A stretch of DNA of 64,000 nt from an uncultured Aminicenantes bacterium (GTDB taxonomy: Bacteria; Acidobacteriota; Aminicenantia; UBA2199). The notes under the pieces are model-generated. The model was not told the origin of the DNA. It searched no databases and worked only from the letters and a program-made list of their open reading frames with translations. Location of the stretch: contig CBDAFS010000062.1 of NCBI GenBank assembly GCA_965195285.1, positions 139,165-203,164 on the forward strand, given 5' to 3'. Position numbers and translations under genes: made by a program. The number at the start of each line of letters is the position of its first letter. Within the stretch, counting starts at the first letter, position 1. Below are positions 1 to 6,726 of the stretch, piece by piece.

Positions 1-4
1 TTTT

Positions 5-997
5 GTGAATTCCGGCAGTGAAGCCAACGAACTGGCCCTGCGCATCGCCAAGACCTGTACCGGACACAGAGATTTTGTGGTCATCGATCATGCCTATCAC
101 GGCAATACCAATGCGGTCATTGAGATCAGCCCCTATAAATTCGATGGGCCCGGCGGCACCGGCCAGTCCCCACATGTCCACAAGGTCCGGATGCCCGATA
201 CCTACCGGGGTGAATTCCGGGAGGATGATCCAAAAGCCGGATTAAAATACGGCCGGGATATCGACCAGGCCCTCAGGAAAATCAAACAGACCGGAAAGGG
301 CATTGCCGGGTTTATTGCCGAATCCATCAGCAGTGTCGGGGGTCAAATATTTCTGCCTGCCCATTATCTCGAATCTATTTACGAACAGGTGCGAAAAGCC
401 GGGGGCCTCTGTATCGCCGATGAAGTCCAGGTGGGGTTCGGACGGGTGGGCAGCCATTTCTGGGCCTTCGAATTACAGGATGTGGTACCGGATATAGTGA
501 CCATGGGCAAACCCATGGGCAACGGCCATCCGATAGCAGCCGTGGTAACCACTCCCGAGATCGATGCGGCCTTTAACAAGGGCATGGAATACTTCAATAC
601 CTTTGGAGGTAATCCCGTGGCCTGCACCATCGGCCTGTCGGTATTAGAGGTGATCCGGAGCGAAAATCTGCAACAACACGCTTCAGAGGTGGGAAAATAT
701 TTCCTCGAACAGCTAGAAGAATTAATGAAGGAGCACGATCTGATCGGCGATGTACGGGGATCGGGATTGTTTCTGGGTATCGAACTGGTCCTGGACCGCT
801 CCAGCCTGGAACCGGCTAAAGAACATGCCTATGATATTGCCAATCGAATGCGGGAGAACGGAATCCTTATCAGCATCGACGGTCCGCTTCACAATGTGAT
901 AAAAATCAAGCCCCCCCTGGTTTTCAATAAAAAGGATGCTGACCGCTATGTCGAACAGCTGGACCGGATACTCAACATAAAACGGACATTAGATTGA
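5..997 (+). CDS. Class III PLP aminotransferase / phospho-lyase (ETNPPL/PHYKPL-like); 5' end probably outside the window
   Basis: [20 protein letters not shown] and TMGKPMGNG (PLP Lys) motifs; FNTFGGNP. Confidence 0.85.
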
Positions 998-1018: not shown

Positions 1019-1867
1019 TTAAAATTCAACCCCGAAACGTTTTCTCAAGGCTAATACAATGATGATCACCAGGATCAGGTGATAGACCAACCAGTGGGTT
1101 TTCAATCCTAACAGGGAAACACTCTTGGCCGGATATCGGAGAGAAAGGGTGTCGACCGGACCGACATTTTTAATTAATTTTTCAGCCGGATAGATAAAAT
1201 GGTCGACAGAGGATTTTCCCATTTTTTTGTTCGAAAGGGATTCCGTATTTTTACCGATCACCAGGTTTTTACTGATTATCTGCTCATTGACCTGAACCCG
1301 AATATCAGTATGGCCCGGTTTCAGGCACTTCAACTTCCAGTTTACTTCACGGATGGGTCTGGTGCGTTCATCATCCTCATAGGCATTGATAAAAACCGGA
1401 TTCATCACCGGCTTAAAATGGTCGCTGTCCAGCAACCGGATTTTCATACCTTTCGGATCGGAATTCAACCGGGCCTTGAATACAAAAATATCGTCCGGTT
1501 CAAAGGGCCTCATCCCGTAGCGGATGTCCATTTGAACAAATATAGGGAAAAGAATGGGAATGATGATGAGCACGGGACCGATATTCAGCATGAAATACTT
1601 CAGGGTATAAAACAGACTTTTAAAAAAAGATCCGGTAATCACCCTCCAGAAATCTTTGTACAGCCTGATGGCTAATATGCTGGATTTTATTTTATTTTTG
1701 GTATCCTTGATCCGGGTCGGAGAAGATATATATTTGAAGATGACCAGTACGATCAGAGAGATCAAAATGCTCAGAAAGAGAATGGCCAAAAAATCCCCCA
1801 AAAATCCAAAAGGGTACAGTATCACATCAAATACTTTGGTAATGAAAAAATTAACCTGCTGTATCAT
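1019..1867 (-). CDS. Membrane protein with DUF106/EMC3/TMCO1 (Oxa1 superfamily)-like topology and an inserted extracytoplasmic beta-rich domain
   Basis: Amphipathic helix-TM1-basic helical hairpin-TM2-soluble domain-TM3 ending WLVYHLIL...LRKRFG; ATG directly abuts the upstream stop. Confidence 0.6.
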   Translation of the reverse strand: MIQQVNFFITKVFDVILYPFGFLGDFLAILFLSILISLIVLVIFKYISSPTRIKDTKNKIKSSILAIRLYKDFWRVITGSFFKSLFYTLKYFMLNIGPVLIIIPILFPIFVQMDIRYGMRPFEPDDIFVFKARLNSDPKGMKIRLLDSDHFKPVMNPVFINAYEDDERTRPIREVNWKLKCLKPGHTDIRVQVNEQIISKNLVIGKNTESLSNKKMGKSSVDHFIYPAEKLIKNVGPVDTLSLRYPAKSVSLLGLKTHWLVYHLILVIIIVLALRKRFGVEF

Positions 1868-2056
1868 TTAGGATATGTATCCCAGCCCGCTCAACTTGTC
1901 AGCCTGTTCCTCTTTGTTATCATCGGATTTAATGGTTTCATATTCCTTATTGATCAGATTATCAATGAGTTCTTCCACCGAAGAATATCCGTGAAAGGCC
2001 AGGATCTCATCCACTTTCTGGGCACTTTCATTGCTGAGTTTTACTTTTTTTGCCAT
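1868..2056 (-). CDS. Small ribbon-helix-helix (CopG-like) protein with C-terminal LxxLGY tail
   Basis: KVKL strand, GYSSVEELI turn, acidic linker, DKLSGLGYIS end; AGGAG SD. Confidence 0.7.
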   Translation of the reverse strand: MAKKVKLSNESAQKVDEILAFHGYSSVEELIDNLINKEYETIKSDDNKEEQADKLSGLGYIS

Positions 2057-2065
2057 TTCTTTCTC

Positions 2066-4036
2066 CTAAATTAGCGATCTTCCCTTTACCGTAGGAACAT
2101 TTTCGATCCCGAAATATTTCAGAATGGTCGGGGCAACATCCCGGATATGGGGGATTTTGGTATTGATCTTGAAATTTGAAACAAAACTGGCCGGTACATG
2201 AACCGGATCGATGAGATGATCTCCGGACCACCAGTCCATATTATCACTGAGCATCTCTTTGGAAAATCCGCCCAGGGCAGCTCCGTCACCACAGCGGTAT
2301 CCCTTATTGAATCCCATGATGATATCGGGTGCCCGGTCAATGAAATCCTTGGAAAAATAATCTTCGGATATATAAGCCTGGGAGATTACCTGTTGTCCGT
2401 TCTGAGGATCTTTGATCATTTCCAGCTTGGCCTTGATCTCTTCCAGAAGTTTTCTCCTTTCCTCCGGTTTTACAATACCCTGGGCTTCCCGTCCCTTTAA
2501 ATTCAAGTACAATCCGTTAAGCCCCATGAAATAGGCCTTGGTGTTGTTCCAATCCCCATACCCTAACAAATCAACATCTTCGGAGATACCATCGACAGTC
2601 AGCTTTTGATAACCCTCCTGGTATAACCAGTTGTTTATATTTACCTGTCGGCGATAGGGATTGAATCCATGGTCCGAGACTACCAGTATGGAAACATCTT
2701 CGGGGCATCTCTTGAGCACATCCCCGAGAATACGGTCATGCATGCGATAGAGCTCATGGTGGATGTAGCCATATTTCTTCTGGGCTTCGGGCTTATAAAA
2801 GGGATGATCCTTGTCATTCAAGGCCCAGCACATGTGCTGGCCCTGATCCGCCGCCGAAAAATAGAAAAACAGAAATCCGCTCTTCTTCTGAAGAAATCGA
2901 TCAAACTCATATTTAAAAATCTTCTTACTTTCCTCGAAAACCGACAGGGACTGAACGATATAGTTTTCCATAGAAAAAGTACCCTGACTCAGGGCTTTGG
3001 TATCAGCAGGCAAATTAATGGTATGAAAAAGGCCGCAGTGCTCAGCCAGTTCCTTGCTGTAAGAAGAAGGAGTGCTGATGGACAGGGCCGGATCCCGGGG
3101 ACTGATATGAATCGGTGACACATACAGCCTGAATTTTTCCCCCATCTCCATCAGGTAAAACCTGACCATCCCGGTGACGCTGCTGATGTTTGGAATCAGG
3201 GGAAATTTGATTTCCACCCATCCGGATAATTGTTTTTCGGATAACAATATTTCTTTGCCCTGAACATCTATTCTGGCGGTTTTGTGCTGGTAATCCAGAT
3301 AGGCGCGGAAGGGGATCTCCACATTTTCACCATCCTCCACCAGGTCATTTTTGGGGCCTTCAATAATCCCATTCTCCATCACATGATCATCGTTGATGTA
3401 AGCATAGTACATGTTGTTGGGTGAAATATCCTTTTCGGATTCCTCTTCATCCGAGGTAAATAGGGTATATATCCCGTAAGTCCCCATGATGTCCGGGGTA
3501 CCCATACCGGAAATGGTTCGCTGGTTACTATCCGAAGGGGGGTAATTATTGGGGATCTTAAAGATGGTGGCATCCACATCCCGTTCTTCGAGGTAATCCC
3601 AGAAGGCTTTCCCTTCCCGCTTTAAAACCACTTTTCCGGATTTCAGGGGTATTTTGTATTTCCCTAACTTTACAATCCATTCGGAGGGAAAGGTCTCGGC
3701 CCAGGATGGGATGGGGAAATAATTGTTAGGATCCCGGTGTACCCAGTCAAAAATACCGAAAGTTCCGGGATCTGATCCGGTGATGAAACTCCCCCAGGCA
3801 ACCGGGCTGTGGGGAGGGATGGTGGTCCTCATCATGGTAAAAGTCCCTCTCTGGGCCAGTTTCTTCATATTGGGCATCTGCCCCTGTTGCATCAACCGAT
3901 AGGTGATCATCGGATCCATGCCATCGATACCCAGAACAATCATTTTTTTTGATCCGGGTCCGGCGGAGGCAAAGTTCATGAATGGTGTTGCCGCCAATAC
4001 CATTCCCGTATTTCGAATAAATTCTCGTCGTCTCAT
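2066..4036 (-). CDS. Alkaline phosphatase superfamily phosphodiesterase/nucleotide pyrophosphatase-like protein with twin-arginine signal
   Basis: MRRREFIR Tat motif; GIDGMD, PPHSPVAW, DQGQH, SDHGF, GDH metal/nucleophile motifs. Confidence 0.85.
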   Translation of the reverse strand: MRRREFIRNTGMVLAATPFMNFASAGPGSKKMIVLGIDGMDPMITYRLMQQGQMPNMKKLAQRGTFTMMRTTIPPHSPVAWGSFITGSDPGTFGIFDWVHRDPNNYFPIPSWAETFPSEWIVKLGKYKIPLKSGKVVLKREGKAFWDYLEERDVDATIFKIPNNYPPSDSNQRTISGMGTPDIMGTYGIYTLFTSDEEESEKDISPNNMYYAYINDDHVMENGIIEGPKNDLVEDGENVEIPFRAYLDYQHKTARIDVQGKEILLSEKQLSGWVEIKFPLIPNISSVTGMVRFYLMEMGEKFRLYVSPIHISPRDPALSISTPSSYSKELAEHCGLFHTINLPADTKALSQGTFSMENYIVQSLSVFEESKKIFKYEFDRFLQKKSGFLFFYFSAADQGQHMCWALNDKDHPFYKPEAQKKYGYIHHELYRMHDRILGDVLKRCPEDVSILVVSDHGFNPYRRQVNINNWLYQEGYQKLTVDGISEDVDLLGYGDWNNTKAYFMGLNGLYLNLKGREAQGIVKPEERRKLLEEIKAKLEMIKDPQNGQQVISQAYISEDYFSKDFIDRAPDIIMGFNKGYRCGDGAALGGFSKEMLSDNMDWWSGDHLIDPVHVPASFVSNFKINTKIPHIRDVAPTILKYFGIENVPTVKGRSLI

Positions 4037-4069
4037 TTCAAATCCCCTTTGTTTTCATTCCATGACTCT

Positions 4070-6157
4070 TCATTGAACCTTCAGGTTTTTTCCTTCAATA
4101 AAGGACGGTGGTTCAATGCCAAAAACAGATAACACCGTGGGCGAGATATCAAGCAGAGAAGGATCTGCCTCCGATATTTTTTTATTACTGAAAAATATCC
4201 CGGGCACCTGTTCTCTGGTCAGGGCATGATCCCCGCTCCACATCTTCAGGTTATCGGAAAAACACCGATCACCCACATAATTCACGGTGGATTCCCAGGA
4301 TACCCGGTGGCCGATATTATAGCCCACGACAATATCCGGTGCATTATCCACATAGGGCCCGCGGTATATTTCTTCCCGCTTGTAAACCGATTTTAAAACC
4401 CGGGTACGGGTCTTGTCATCGATCACCTTGAGTAATTTATCTTTAATTTCACTTTTGATTTTTTCTGCTTCCGGGCCTCTATTCACGATTCCCTGTTTTT
4501 CCCTTCCCTTCATATTGAGGAAAATTCCGTTGAGCCCCTGGCCATAAGCCCTGGATTTTGACCAGTCAACATCGGCATACCATTTACCGCTTTCCTTTTT
4601 ACCGTCCTTCAATACCAGATAGCCCTGCTGGTGAAGCCAGGTATTCAAGTGAAATTCGCGATTGAAGGCATTAAATCCATGGTCGGAAACAATCATCAGC
4701 AGGTCATTTTTATTGATGCGGGGTAATAGTTTCCCCAAAAAATCATCCATGGCCCGGTAGGATTCATAGATGGCATTCACAATATGGCTGTCTTTGGAAG
4801 GTTTATCGGCCGGGGAACCGGAATGCTTCAGATACCTCCAGAACATGTGCTGGATTCGATCGGTTGCCTCAAAAACCTGAACCAGCAGCCCCTGCTTGAA
4901 TTTCCCGAACGTATTAAAAAATATCTTCTCCCGTTCTTGCTGGGTATTGTATACCTGCTGAAGAAAAACGTCCTCTGACAGAATCCCTTCGTTTACCGCC
5001 CAGGTGTCCTCGGCCTGGCCCAGTGTGGCAAAGGCCCCCAGTAATTTTGACAGATAAACCGAAAAGATTTTGGGATGGGATACGGGCATGGAAGGTTTTT
5101 CCGGGTCAATGTTGATGGGAGACAGATACAGTTTGATGGGATCGGTGTCTTCCAAAACCCACTGGGCAATCCCGGATATTTTAATCAATCCGGCCTTAAA
5201 TTCCAGGGGAATCCAGATTGAGAGTTTTTTGCTCTCGATCCGGTACTTATCCTTGCCTATCTCAATCTCCCCCGAACCATTGCCCTTATTCAGGGTAAAT
5301 TTAAAATCCAGCTCCAGGGGGGGATTGCCCCGTACAAAGGGATTGGCAGGACCTTTGATCGTTCCGGCATAGCAATTTTCATCAGTTTTTTCCAGCTTTT
5401 CGTAGATTCCTTCCGAAATATCGAAATCCTTGTCTTTGCCGTCAGAATAAAAACTAAAACTGCCCTGGGATCCTCTCAAATCAGGAGTACTGAGACCGGA
5501 AAGCATGCAACCGTAGAACTTTTCGGCCGGAAAGGTAAAAGGCACCCGTAAAACAGCTGAATATATCCCCTTGCTGCTGACAATTTTCCAGAAACTTTTG
5601 CTCTTGCGCTTCCATTCGATCTTGGGCTTGGAAATGGGTATGGTCAGCTTTCCGATATTTAACACCCGCTTGGGGGGAAGGATATCGGAACTGGCCAGTT
5701 TGGGCATGTAGGTATTCCGGTCCGTGGTTAAAAAATCAAAAATATTGTGTTTTCCGGGATTCACCCCGGTAGAAAAGGTCGACCAGGCCACCGGAGAAAT
5801 GGGGGGTTCCGTACTCCATAATGGAGTGAAGGTGCCGGATTCGGAAACACGGTCAAAATTCGGGAATGATTTTCCTTCTTTTTTGAACCGCTTCATAAGA
5901 TTGTAATCCATTCCATCAAAACCCACAACGATCACCCTTTTATATTTGGCTTTTTTTAAGGTTCGGATCCTTTTCAAGAATTTAAAGAAGGTTCTGACCG
6001 GAAAGGTCAGCAGGTTAAAAAAGGCTAAGAAAAAGGCCACAAATATAAAGAAAAAAGATCCCACAAAAGCAAAACCCGCTCCGGGCCCCACATAGGAAAA
6101 TATAGGACAGACCAGAAATAAAAGCGAGAGGAATACGATAACCTTTACTTTTCTCAT
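4070..6157 (-). CDS. Alkaline phosphatase superfamily phosphodiesterase-like protein with N-terminal signal + YxGPG motif + TM anchor
   Basis: GFDGMD, PPISPVAW, DRIQH, SDHGF, GDH; start reassigned to ATG 6157 (MRKVKV) because the ORF-track start at 6301 overlaps the Fur gene. Confidence 0.85.
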   Translation of the reverse strand: MRKVKVIVFLSLLFLVCPIFSYVGPGAGFAFVGSFFFIFVAFFLAFFNLLTFPVRTFFKFLKRIRTLKKAKYKRVIVVGFDGMDYNLMKRFKKEGKSFPNFDRVSESGTFTPLWSTEPPISPVAWSTFSTGVNPGKHNIFDFLTTDRNTYMPKLASSDILPPKRVLNIGKLTIPISKPKIEWKRKSKSFWKIVSSKGIYSAVLRVPFTFPAEKFYGCMLSGLSTPDLRGSQGSFSFYSDGKDKDFDISEGIYEKLEKTDENCYAGTIKGPANPFVRGNPPLELDFKFTLNKGNGSGEIEIGKDKYRIESKKLSIWIPLEFKAGLIKISGIAQWVLEDTDPIKLYLSPINIDPEKPSMPVSHPKIFSVYLSKLLGAFATLGQAEDTWAVNEGILSEDVFLQQVYNTQQEREKIFFNTFGKFKQGLLVQVFEATDRIQHMFWRYLKHSGSPADKPSKDSHIVNAIYESYRAMDDFLGKLLPRINKNDLLMIVSDHGFNAFNREFHLNTWLHQQGYLVLKDGKKESGKWYADVDWSKSRAYGQGLNGIFLNMKGREKQGIVNRGPEAEKIKSEIKDKLLKVIDDKTRTRVLKSVYKREEIYRGPYVDNAPDIVVGYNIGHRVSWESTVNYVGDRCFSDNLKMWSGDHALTREQVPGIFFSNKKISEADPSLLDISPTVLSVFGIEPPSFIEGKNLKVQ

Positions 6158-6267: not shown

Positions 6268-6726
6268 CTATCTTGTTTGGTGTTTCTGACATTGGTTGCA
6301 AAACCCTTCTAAAATTACCTTCTTGCTCAACACCCGGTATTGTTTTTTCAGAACCGGGGGAATCTTCAGGTTATCATAGGCCGGATGGTAGATATCAATG
6401 ATGTCATCGCAGCGAAGACATCTGAAATGGTGATGATCCGACAGATTGGGATCAAAACGGCGCGGATTGCCATAACCTTCCACGACTCTCACGATTCCGA
6501 CTTTTGAAAAAGTCAACAGGGTTCGGTTCACCGTGTCAAATGAAATATTGGGAAAAATCTTTTTGGCCCTTTTAAACAGTTTTTCCGCACTGGGATGTTC
6601 TCTGGATTCGACCAGTTCCCGGTATAACATCAACCGCTGCGGGGTCAATTTCAGCTTATGCTGTTTACACTTCTCGATAAAACGATCCATATCAAGATCC
6701 CGGTCACCAAATTCATCTTTTTTCAT
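6268..6726 (-). CDS. perR: Fur-family transcriptional repressor, PerR-like
   Basis: LTPQR, HPSAE, SFDTVNRTL, HHHFRCLRC and GFCNQC Zn motifs. Confidence 0.85.
   Translation of the reverse strand: MKKDEFGDRDLDMDRFIEKCKQHKLKLTPQRLMLYRELVESREHPSAEKLFKRAKKIFPNISFDTVNRTLLTFSKVGIVRVVEGYGNPRRFDPNLSDHHHFRCLRCDDIIDIYHPAYDNLKIPPVLKKQYRVLSKKVILEGFCNQCQKHQTR

Follow-up and report, generated by a model that had tools for sequence, protein, structure and literature searches.

A bacterial membrane protein family with a predicted DUF106/Ylp1-like three-helix core, encoded in a conserved module with phosphodiesterase-like enzymes

The window analysed here, a 64,000-nucleotide stretch of contig CBDAFS010000062.1 from an uncultured Aminicenantes bacterium, carries near its start a strictly conserved module of four genes, which encode a membrane-anchored phosphodiesterase-like enzyme, a paralogue of this enzyme with a twin-arginine translocation (Tat) signal, a 62-residue protein and a 282-residue membrane protein, the last of which is the main subject of this report. 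The 282-residue protein is encoded by an ATG-start open reading frame (ORF) at 1019..1867 on the minus strand, a strand assignment that was absent from a preliminary description of this DNA. The stop codon of the 62-residue gene abuts the ATG of the 282-residue gene (TAAATG junction), indicating tight operon packing, and the gene is real and conserved. The protein is very probably a homologue of the Oxa1 superfamily. At the level of the family, profile similarity, the order of the parts and the predicted topology point to a divergent bacterial member of the DUF106/Ylp1 three-helix branch.

The preliminary description had given the order of the parts as an amphipathic helix, a first transmembrane helix (TM1), a helical hairpin, a second helix (TM2), a beta-rich insert of about 140 residues and a third helix (TM3), and this order was borne out by an AlphaFold2 model (mean predicted local distance difference test (pLDDT) 88.3; predicted template modelling score (pTM) 0.76; built on 37 relatives) and by a Kyte-Doolittle scan, which found three hydrophobic segments at about residues 25-47, 90-115 and 257-277. 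The three-transmembrane layout of Oxa1 type that had been claimed was present in the model with all of its elements. The N-terminal amphipathic helix (residues 2-21; 1805..1864), the equivalent of H0/EH1, was modelled as two helices at 2-16 and 18-21 and is predicted to be periplasmic, lying on the membrane surface. TM1 (residues 25-47; 1727..1795), a single helix over the same range in the model, is followed by a basic helical hairpin that is predicted to be cytoplasmic (residues 48-89; 1601..1726) and consists of a helix at 50-69 and the start of a helix at 74-117 that continues into TM2 (residues 90-115; 1523..1600). The beta domain, predicted to be periplasmic (residues 116-256; 1100..1522), contains an immunoglobulin (Ig)-like sandwich at residues 120-208, and the model placed at least 11 strands between residues 127 and 257. 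TM3 (residues 257-274; 1046..1099), modelled as a helix at 259-274, opens with H258-W259, and the protein ends in a short basic C-tail, again predicted to be cytoplasmic (residues 275-282, with an F-G-V-E-[IFLV] end), which together with the stop codon occupies 1019..1045. All of these features lie on the minus strand. The sequence motifs quoted in the preliminary description were all found in the translation of the ORF, namely FDVILYPF (residues 13-20), FKYISS (44-49), IGPVLII (96-102), WLVYHLIL (259-266) and LRKRFG (274-279).

The protein belongs to a large family. A word-indexed search returned 312 relatives of near length at E<=0.001, and among the best 120 of these the identity was 51-92% and the source names were mostly 'hypothetical protein', from Aminicenantes or Acidobacteriota assemblies. 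When a profile of 37 sequences (A1) was run against 1.84 billion cluster representatives, 1844 clusters (50% identity) were matched at E<=0.001, with 1151 at E<=1e-10 and 217 at E<=1e-30. Among the matches listed (150 of the 1844 clusters), nearly all aligned end to end with a length of 265-300 residues, indicating that the insert-bearing architecture is the norm of the family.

Conservation was counted in a broader alignment (A2) that consisted of the window protein and 138 full-length representatives (139 sequences in all), with 21-56% identity to the window protein. Polar residues were conserved within TM1 (S33 in 122 of the 139 sequences; T or S at position 36 in 97), and TM2, which also carries a proline at P104/105, retained Y91 (135), P98 (130) and Q112 (113). 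TM3 displayed a nearly constant W259 (134 of 139), together with H258 (99) and a serine or threonine at position 267 (122). The C-tail was conserved at position 275 as K or R (125), at V280 (122) and at E281 (95), and F278, E281 and F282 were invariant in the A1 alignment. The mean net charge over the 139 sequences was -0.08 for the N-tail, +4.06 for loop 1 (which has a mean of 7.6 K/R), +0.05 for the beta domain and +1.05 for the C-tail. This charge distribution and the hydropathy fit a predicted topology in which a three-transmembrane core has its N-terminus outside and its C-terminus inside.

The claim that the beta-rich insert of about 140 residues is an added periplasmic domain was upheld by the model, given the predicted topology. 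When the beta domain was folded alone it reached a pLDDT of 90.4. The best match of the insert in VIA-align was 3m86_A, a chagasin-type inhibitor (Z 6.2, 87 residues aligned), with InvD/InvE invasin-type Big domains at Z 5.7 and filamin at Z about 5, and Foldseek matched the insert to Ig-like folds at E 0.02-0.1. The match covers residues 5-93 of the 143-residue domain, leaving the last 50 residues unmatched, and no specific family was prominent. As modelled, the insert is a generic Ig-like sandwich in the periplasmic loop between TM2 and TM3. This loop is the site of the extra transmembrane hairpin of bacterial YidC and one of two hypervariable regions of the superfamily in the available text of PMC8887752 and 10.1101/2020.12.20.422553.

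A 111-nt segment within the Ig-like domain (1218-1328; residues about 180-217) was diverged, at the same length, in comparison with contigs from DNA run X4 and RNA-library run X1, with flanks that were 99-100% identical. This may reflect strain-level mosaicism in an exposed domain. A diversity-generating retroelement was considered for this segment and is unlikely, because no template-like repeat was found within the window.

Similarity of the protein to the DUF106/EMC3/TMCO1 proteins, which the preliminary description had proposed, was borne out at the family level by profile searches. PF01956 (EMC3_TMCO1) was the commonest Pfam match in the family, found in 23 of the 139 A2 members with a best E of 4.8e-08 (counted at E<=1), and the runner-up family, LapA_dom, was found in 8 of the 139 with a best E of 0.037. 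An initial look at Pfam had found PF01956 in three of 16 members, with residues of about 14-116 aligned to profile positions 1-113 and TM1, the hairpin and TM2 in register. Against 177,635 distinct PDB sequences, profile A2 matched MJ0480 (5c8j) at E 1e-06 over profile positions 4-120; this was one of five rows at E<=10, and the other four (E 0.27-2.7) were Ig-like proteins that matched the insert. A weak second stretch aligned TM3 of the family to residues 171-197 of MJ0480, with the 'W..Y...LRK' end of the two aligned. The preliminary description had held a W-x-x-Y...L-R-K end to be shared with DUF106, EMC3, TMCO1 and Get1, and this weak alignment supports it for MJ0480, the only one of these for which it was seen.

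MJ0480 was also found independently of the A2 sequences. Profile A8, which was built from the first 120 residues of the protein from 54 loci with sequences other than those of A2, returned MJ0480 as the sole PDB row at E<=10 (E 4.4e-06), and in both profiles the region of the N-terminal helix (residues 2-21) aligned with the N-terminus of MJ0480. The family fragment P0279, searched by itself, also had MJ0480 as its first PDB match (E 4.8e-05) and matched PF01956 at E 3.5e-05. A search with A8 for archaeal DUF106 sequences returned 44 proteins, all of them fragments of the same bacterial family, and two family fragments carry the label 'DUF106 family' in the JGI annotation. When the fold of the model was compared with 48,161 chains in VIA-align (50 rows), the two longest alignments both ran from TM1 to TM3. 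These were to YidC2 of B. halodurans (3wo7_A; 148 residues aligned, Z 7.2, root mean square deviation 5.8) and to a multipass-translocon chain of 177 residues (7tut_8; 136 aligned, Z 8.0, root mean square deviation 4.4), with both Z values within the tool's unsafe range for helical proteins. From its size we guess that 7tut chain 8 is TMCO1. The two features on which the preliminary description had staked its assignment, a three-transmembrane core and profile similarity to PF01956, were both found, the former in the model and the latter at the level of the family.

The conservation of the module was assessed at 70 genome loci and at 80 metagenome loci of a distant clade, in which the membrane protein is 25-34% identical. 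The small gene was adjacent upstream of the membrane protein gene at 69 of the 70 genome loci, with less than 200 nt of upstream DNA at the remaining one, and at 73 of the 80 metagenome loci. A phosphodiesterase-like gene was found upstream at 67 of the genome loci and the Tat-type enzyme at 65. Where 4.5 kb or more of upstream DNA was available, both paralogues were present at 29 of 48 genome loci and at all 25 metagenome loci. Where the anchored paralogue was not adjacent, a full-length copy with 67-69% identity was located elsewhere in three of the four genomes checked.

A census of 401 sampled genomes of the window's phylum (the tallies include one genome, G049, that is flagged as unpublished) found the membrane protein in 120, among them 11 of 11 of the same family and 23 of 27 others of the same class. 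A match to the small protein was found in 123 genomes, and all 120 carriers of the membrane protein have both. In 117 of these 120 the small gene precedes the membrane protein gene on the same strand at a distance of at most 232 nt; G039, G288 and G361 are the other three. Three genomes had a match to the small protein only, two of them weak (E about 1e-6). Records titled Deferrimicrobium (L021), Chrysiogenia (L024) and Omnitrophota (L044) all fall within the same phylum sample as the window genome, and their titles are therefore no ground for a multi-phylum spread. Look-alike clusters in the ESM Atlas were assigned to Planctomycetota (for the 282-residue protein) and to Myxococcota and Bdellovibrionota (for the enzyme), and these are leads only.

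The small gene (1868..2056, minus strand) encodes a 62-residue protein that resembles ribbon-helix-helix (RHH) proteins, with weak matches to the NikR N-terminal region (E 0.04-0.09), and that ends in an invariant L-x-G-L-G-Y-I. Its G-Y-S-S...E motif is presumably typical of the RHH fold. In 54 sequences from both clades, G23, Y24, S26, E29, L55, G57, L58, G59, Y60 and I61 were invariant, and the tail remained invariant across clades in which the membrane protein drops to 24% identity. A complex prediction for the 282-residue and 62-residue proteins scored 0.00 (mark 0.32); it was run without controls and is no evidence either way. Two more weak matches to the 62-residue protein were observed in its own genome, at G000:C49:24371-24556 (E 3.6e-07) and G000:C62:62435-62620 (E 1.9e-06), both over positions 5-60. 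Seemingly without the full tail, these are probably other small RHH proteins.

Upstream of the small gene, a gene at 2066..4036 (minus strand) encodes a 656-residue enzyme resembling type I phosphodiesterases/nucleotide pyrophosphatases (PF01663, E 1.6e-33), which begins with the twin-arginine sequence MRRREFI. The RR motif was present in 98 of 100 homologues, with the other two cut off, and the homologue at locus L100 has a Pfam TAT_signal match. No solved relative of the 656-residue enzyme was found at E<=0.01. The paralogous phosphodiesterase-like enzyme (4070..6157, minus strand; PF01663, E 7.4e-28) is encoded by an ORF of 743 residues that reaches 6301, with M49 at 6157 as its likely start, and the two paralogues are 34-36% identical to each other. 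The N-terminus of this anchored paralogue contains a hydrophobic segment, the motif AY[VI]GPGAGFAF (YVGPGAGFAF in the window), a second transmembrane helix and a basic stretch, and the GPGAG anchor pattern was conserved in 43 of 45 homologues. Because the basic stretch follows its helix, the anchored enzyme is predicted to face the cytoplasm with its catalytic domain. Contigs from RNA libraries (runs X1 and X2, from the one study that also holds the DNA) overlie each of the three large genes in part, with 1175-1600 of the 282-residue gene among the covered stretches, and one contig spans the junction of the enzyme genes (3685-4192). Since such libraries can contain DNA, these contigs are not proof of transcription.

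Directly upstream of the module lies a gene for a Fur-family regulator (6268..6726, minus strand; PF01475, E 1.4e-22), which was found upstream at one of the 70 genome loci (L050) and does not belong to the conserved module. In the window it sits between a PilZ gene and the module, with a promoter-like site (11 of 12 matches) just upstream of it at 6761-6733. At the locus of the closest relative (L008; membrane protein 93% identical) the PilZ gene is followed after about 66 nt by the first enzyme gene, with no Fur gene. The convergent gene at 2-997 (plus strand) is the end of a gene for a 783-residue protein that fuses an APH-type kinase to a class-III aminotransferase (L158:3811-6162; NCBIfam PRK06148, below cut-off), and this fusion was retained only at the two closest loci, L008 and L009. 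Such kinase-aminotransferase fusions recall, we assume, the pairs of a kinase and a phospho-lyase that act on amino alcohols. About 2.7 kb before the window, the same genome encodes a TIR-domain protein of 260 residues (L158:2672-3454; TIR_2 E 1.3e-11, ThsB_TIR E 2.1e-05), possibly a defence gene.

Six long loci of the distant clade displayed further neighbours. A third PF01663 gene (434-449 residues) precedes the module at three of the six, a HemL/GntE-like class-III aminotransferase (by Pfam) lies upstream at three, and a class I/II aminotransferase of PRK07324/GntC/VioD-like type lies directly downstream on the same strand at four (L085, L100, L116 and L130). Overall, pyridoxal phosphate-dependent enzymes of differing kinds recur beside the module. 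No sulfation genes were found among the 54 flanking ORFs of the six long loci or beside the module in the window.

Taken together, we tentatively read the 282-residue protein as a DUF106-branch homologue that acts as the module's own insertase or assembly factor, a statement that, as a whole, we rate a little short of evenly balanced. The role itself, the insertion or assembly of the module partners, is possible and leans somewhat towards doubtful. The preliminary description had suggested that the protein serves the neighbouring enzymes as a client-specific insertase, chaperone or lipid scramblase, and such a function would fit the strictly conserved gene neighbourhood. In the proposed mechanism the protein would be the membrane subunit of the four-gene module. 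Its three-helix core, with the polar residues S33, T/S36 and S/T267, would receive the membrane-bound paralogue by its short N-out tail and anchor helix, and an N-out tail with an anchor would be a simple type of client of the kind handled by Oxa1-type insertases. On the periplasmic side, the Ig-like domain would keep the Tat-exported paralogue in the same place, the 62-residue protein with its GLGYI tail may act as an adaptor or regulator on the cytoplasmic side, and the housekeeping YidC of the genome would carry out the general insertion work.

Several observations weigh against this reading. The window protein alone gave no PF01956 match at E<=1, either in the Pfam scan or in a PF01956 search of the genome, and it had no match to any Pfam or NCBIfam model. 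The similarity to PF01956 that the preliminary description had called for was present among the relatives and absent from the window protein by itself. With the narrow profile A1, the search of the PDB gave only a chance PvuII row (E 1.1). Because neither the window protein nor A1 finds anything, the homology rests on the family profiles and on the more PF01956-like relatives. The curated cut-off of PF01956 is 27.1 bits, and because the window protein scores below it, we class the protein as a divergent relative and do not count it as a member by Pfam's definition. The expected Foldseek match of the AlphaFold model to EMC3, TMCO1, Get1 or YidC folds did not appear, as the full model returned only weak Ig-like rows from the PDB and no membrane fold. 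The VIA-align Z values of 8.0 and 7.2 are below the safe level for helical bundles, and matches to the hairpin only score alike (Z 7-8.4). Within the protein, the polar TM3 position 267 is a valine in the window protein and its own clade, and the C-tail has only eight residues, unlike the long basic ribosome-binding tails of some YidC/Oxa1 proteins. At some loci, of the two enzymes only the Tat-type one is adjacent, and in one of the four genomes checked (G403, completeness not given) no anchored paralogue was found. Finally, a scaffold or a substrate conduit would suit the gene neighbourhood no less well.

The failure of the window protein to match anything on its own, the modest E-values of the profile matches (1e-06 to 5e-05), a match of the single fragment P0279 to an unrelated transporter (E 0.008) and structural Z scores within the chance range for helical matches would all suit a three-helix protein with a basic hairpin that is of independent origin and resembles DUF106 proteins through a shared composition of transmembrane and Lys-rich helices. 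However, three separate searches of the 177,635 sequences each placed MJ0480 first, with about 115 residues in register that reach from the peripheral helix through TM2, PF01956 was matched by 23 of the 139 members compared to eight for the next family, and TM3 aligned as a separate stretch in the correct order. We consider an independent origin very improbable. Homology granted, the three-helix core could be a mere anchor of a passive scaffold, with the Ig-like domain keeping the Tat-exported enzyme tethered at the periplasmic face of the inner membrane and the 62-residue protein serving as an ordinary operon repressor. Protein binding is a common role of Ig-like sandwiches, and the Ig-like domain is the addition that sets the family apart. 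The 62-residue protein resembles DNA-binding RHH proteins by its weak NikR N-terminal matches, and of the two enzymes the Tat-type one is the more regular neighbour (65 of the 70 genome loci). A plain anchor, however, needs no peripheral helix, basic hairpin, proline and polar positions and FGVE motif conserved across a family of 21-56% identity, and a local repressor would require neither an invariant GLGYI tail nor a gene that is adjacent in 117 of 120 carriers. A passive scaffold seems unlikely.

The prediction of two paralogous enzymes on opposite faces of the membrane (by the Tat signal of one and the anchor and basic stretch of the other), both kept with the membrane protein, is also what would be expected of a conduit for a substrate or lipid. 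Here an Oxa1-like groove would scramble a lipid or lipid-linked phosphoester or pass it between leaflets, and the enzymes on the two faces would act in turn on one membrane-bound substrate. The polar residues conserved within TM1 and TM3 are consistent with this, and lipid scrambling is reported as a general feature of insertases in the available text of PMC11047089. Against a conduit, no lipid-metabolism gene was found among the 54 flanking ORFs scanned at six loci, and the 656-residue enzyme lacks a solved relative at E<=0.01; we regard it as a minor possibility. A related and speculative extension, to which we likewise give little credence, is a two-sided membrane machine in which the DUF106-type groove, instead of serving general protein insertion, couples the cytoplasm-facing and periplasmic enzymes by passing or scrambling a lipid-linked or polymeric phosphoester, with the tyrosine of the GLGYI tail as a gate, inhibitor or covalent acceptor.

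If such a two-sided machine were true, bacteria would have kept the three-helix 'archaeal/eukaryotic' form of insertase alongside YidC, which bears on whether the ancestor had three or five helices. The size of the bacterial three-helix family (1844 clusters; 120 of 401 genomes, some of them single-contig) is itself a new data point on the ancestral insertase. The family also offers a possibly tractable bacterial system, in which a minimal Oxa1-type protein is genetically linked to its likely partners. The module may also represent a new membrane-associated phosphoester pathway, made up of two enzymes predicted on opposite faces, a tailed RHH protein and an insertase relative.

YidC, the more distant bacterial relation, probably shares the superfamily core with the 282-residue protein, and YidC2 (3wo7_A) gave the longest fold alignment, with a Z in the unsafe range. 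The 282-residue protein had no PF02096 match and has three hydrophobic segments, unlike the five-helix YidC type. The periplasmic beta-sandwich domain of E. coli-type YidC is located before the core, not inside it. A canonical YidC is encoded in the same genome (PF02096, E 4.5e-62; contig C9), in agreement with the earlier statement that bacteria normally use YidC. In the available text of PMC8887752 and 10.1101/2020.12.20.422553, YidC has five core helices that include a transmembrane hairpin at the place where the 282-residue protein has its Ig-like domain. Archaeal YidC, in the available text of Lewis and Hegde (10.1101/2020.12.20.422553), has a conserved polar residue in its first helix, polar positions on its last helix and a conserved interfacial Trp, and the likeness of this pattern to S33, T/S36, S/T267 and W259 here is qualitative only. 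The DUF106/Ylp1-type insertases are treated as archaeal and eukaryotic, with bacteria as users of YidC, in the available text of PMC5868721, PMC8887752, 10.1101/2020.12.20.422553 and PMC7618853, and it is unclear, according to the available text of PMC7618853, if three or five helices were present in the ancestral insertase. No description of a bacterial DUF106-type family or of the module was found in the available parts of the literature, and the supplements of these papers could list bacterial PF01956 matches.

The eukaryotic proteins of the three-helix branch, EMC3, TMCO1 and GET1, have a three-transmembrane core with a cytoplasmic hairpin between TM1 and TM2 (PMC5868721 and 10.1101/2020.12.20.422553, in their available text), and the Pfam model matched by relatives of the 282-residue protein, EMC3_TMCO1, is named after two of them. 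The available text of PMC5868721 places the N-terminus of this branch outside and its C-terminus inside, and that of 10.1101/2020.12.20.422553 describes an N-terminal peripheral amphipathic helix before TM1 in the Oxa1 superfamily. EMC3, TMCO1 and GET1 act in multi-subunit complexes of the endoplasmic reticulum with partners of EMC6, GET2 or C20orf24 type (10.1101/2020.12.20.422553, available text). As described in the available text of PMC5868721 and 10.1101/2020.12.20.422553, they have no lumenal Ig-like insert in the TM2-TM3 loop, unlike the 282-residue protein.

The closest counterpart, ahead of EMC3, TMCO1 and GET1, is MJ0480/Ylp1 (5c8j), the archaeal DUF106 protein of Methanocaldococcus jannaschii and the only significant solved sequence match of profiles A2 and A8. 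Sequence identity between the two is low. MJ0480 has 207 residues and no folded domain between TM2 and TM3, whereas this loop here holds about 140 residues with an Ig-like sandwich, and the FGVE[IFLV] C-terminus is conserved here. The host here is a bacterium with YidC, and the gene is tied to phosphodiesterase-like enzymes and a tailed 62-residue protein. Like the 282-residue protein, MJ0480 has a peripheral N-terminal helix, TM1, a cytoplasmic hairpin, TM2, TM3 and a short basic C-end, and in both MJ0480 and the bacterial family a Trp opens TM3 and a basic residue follows it.

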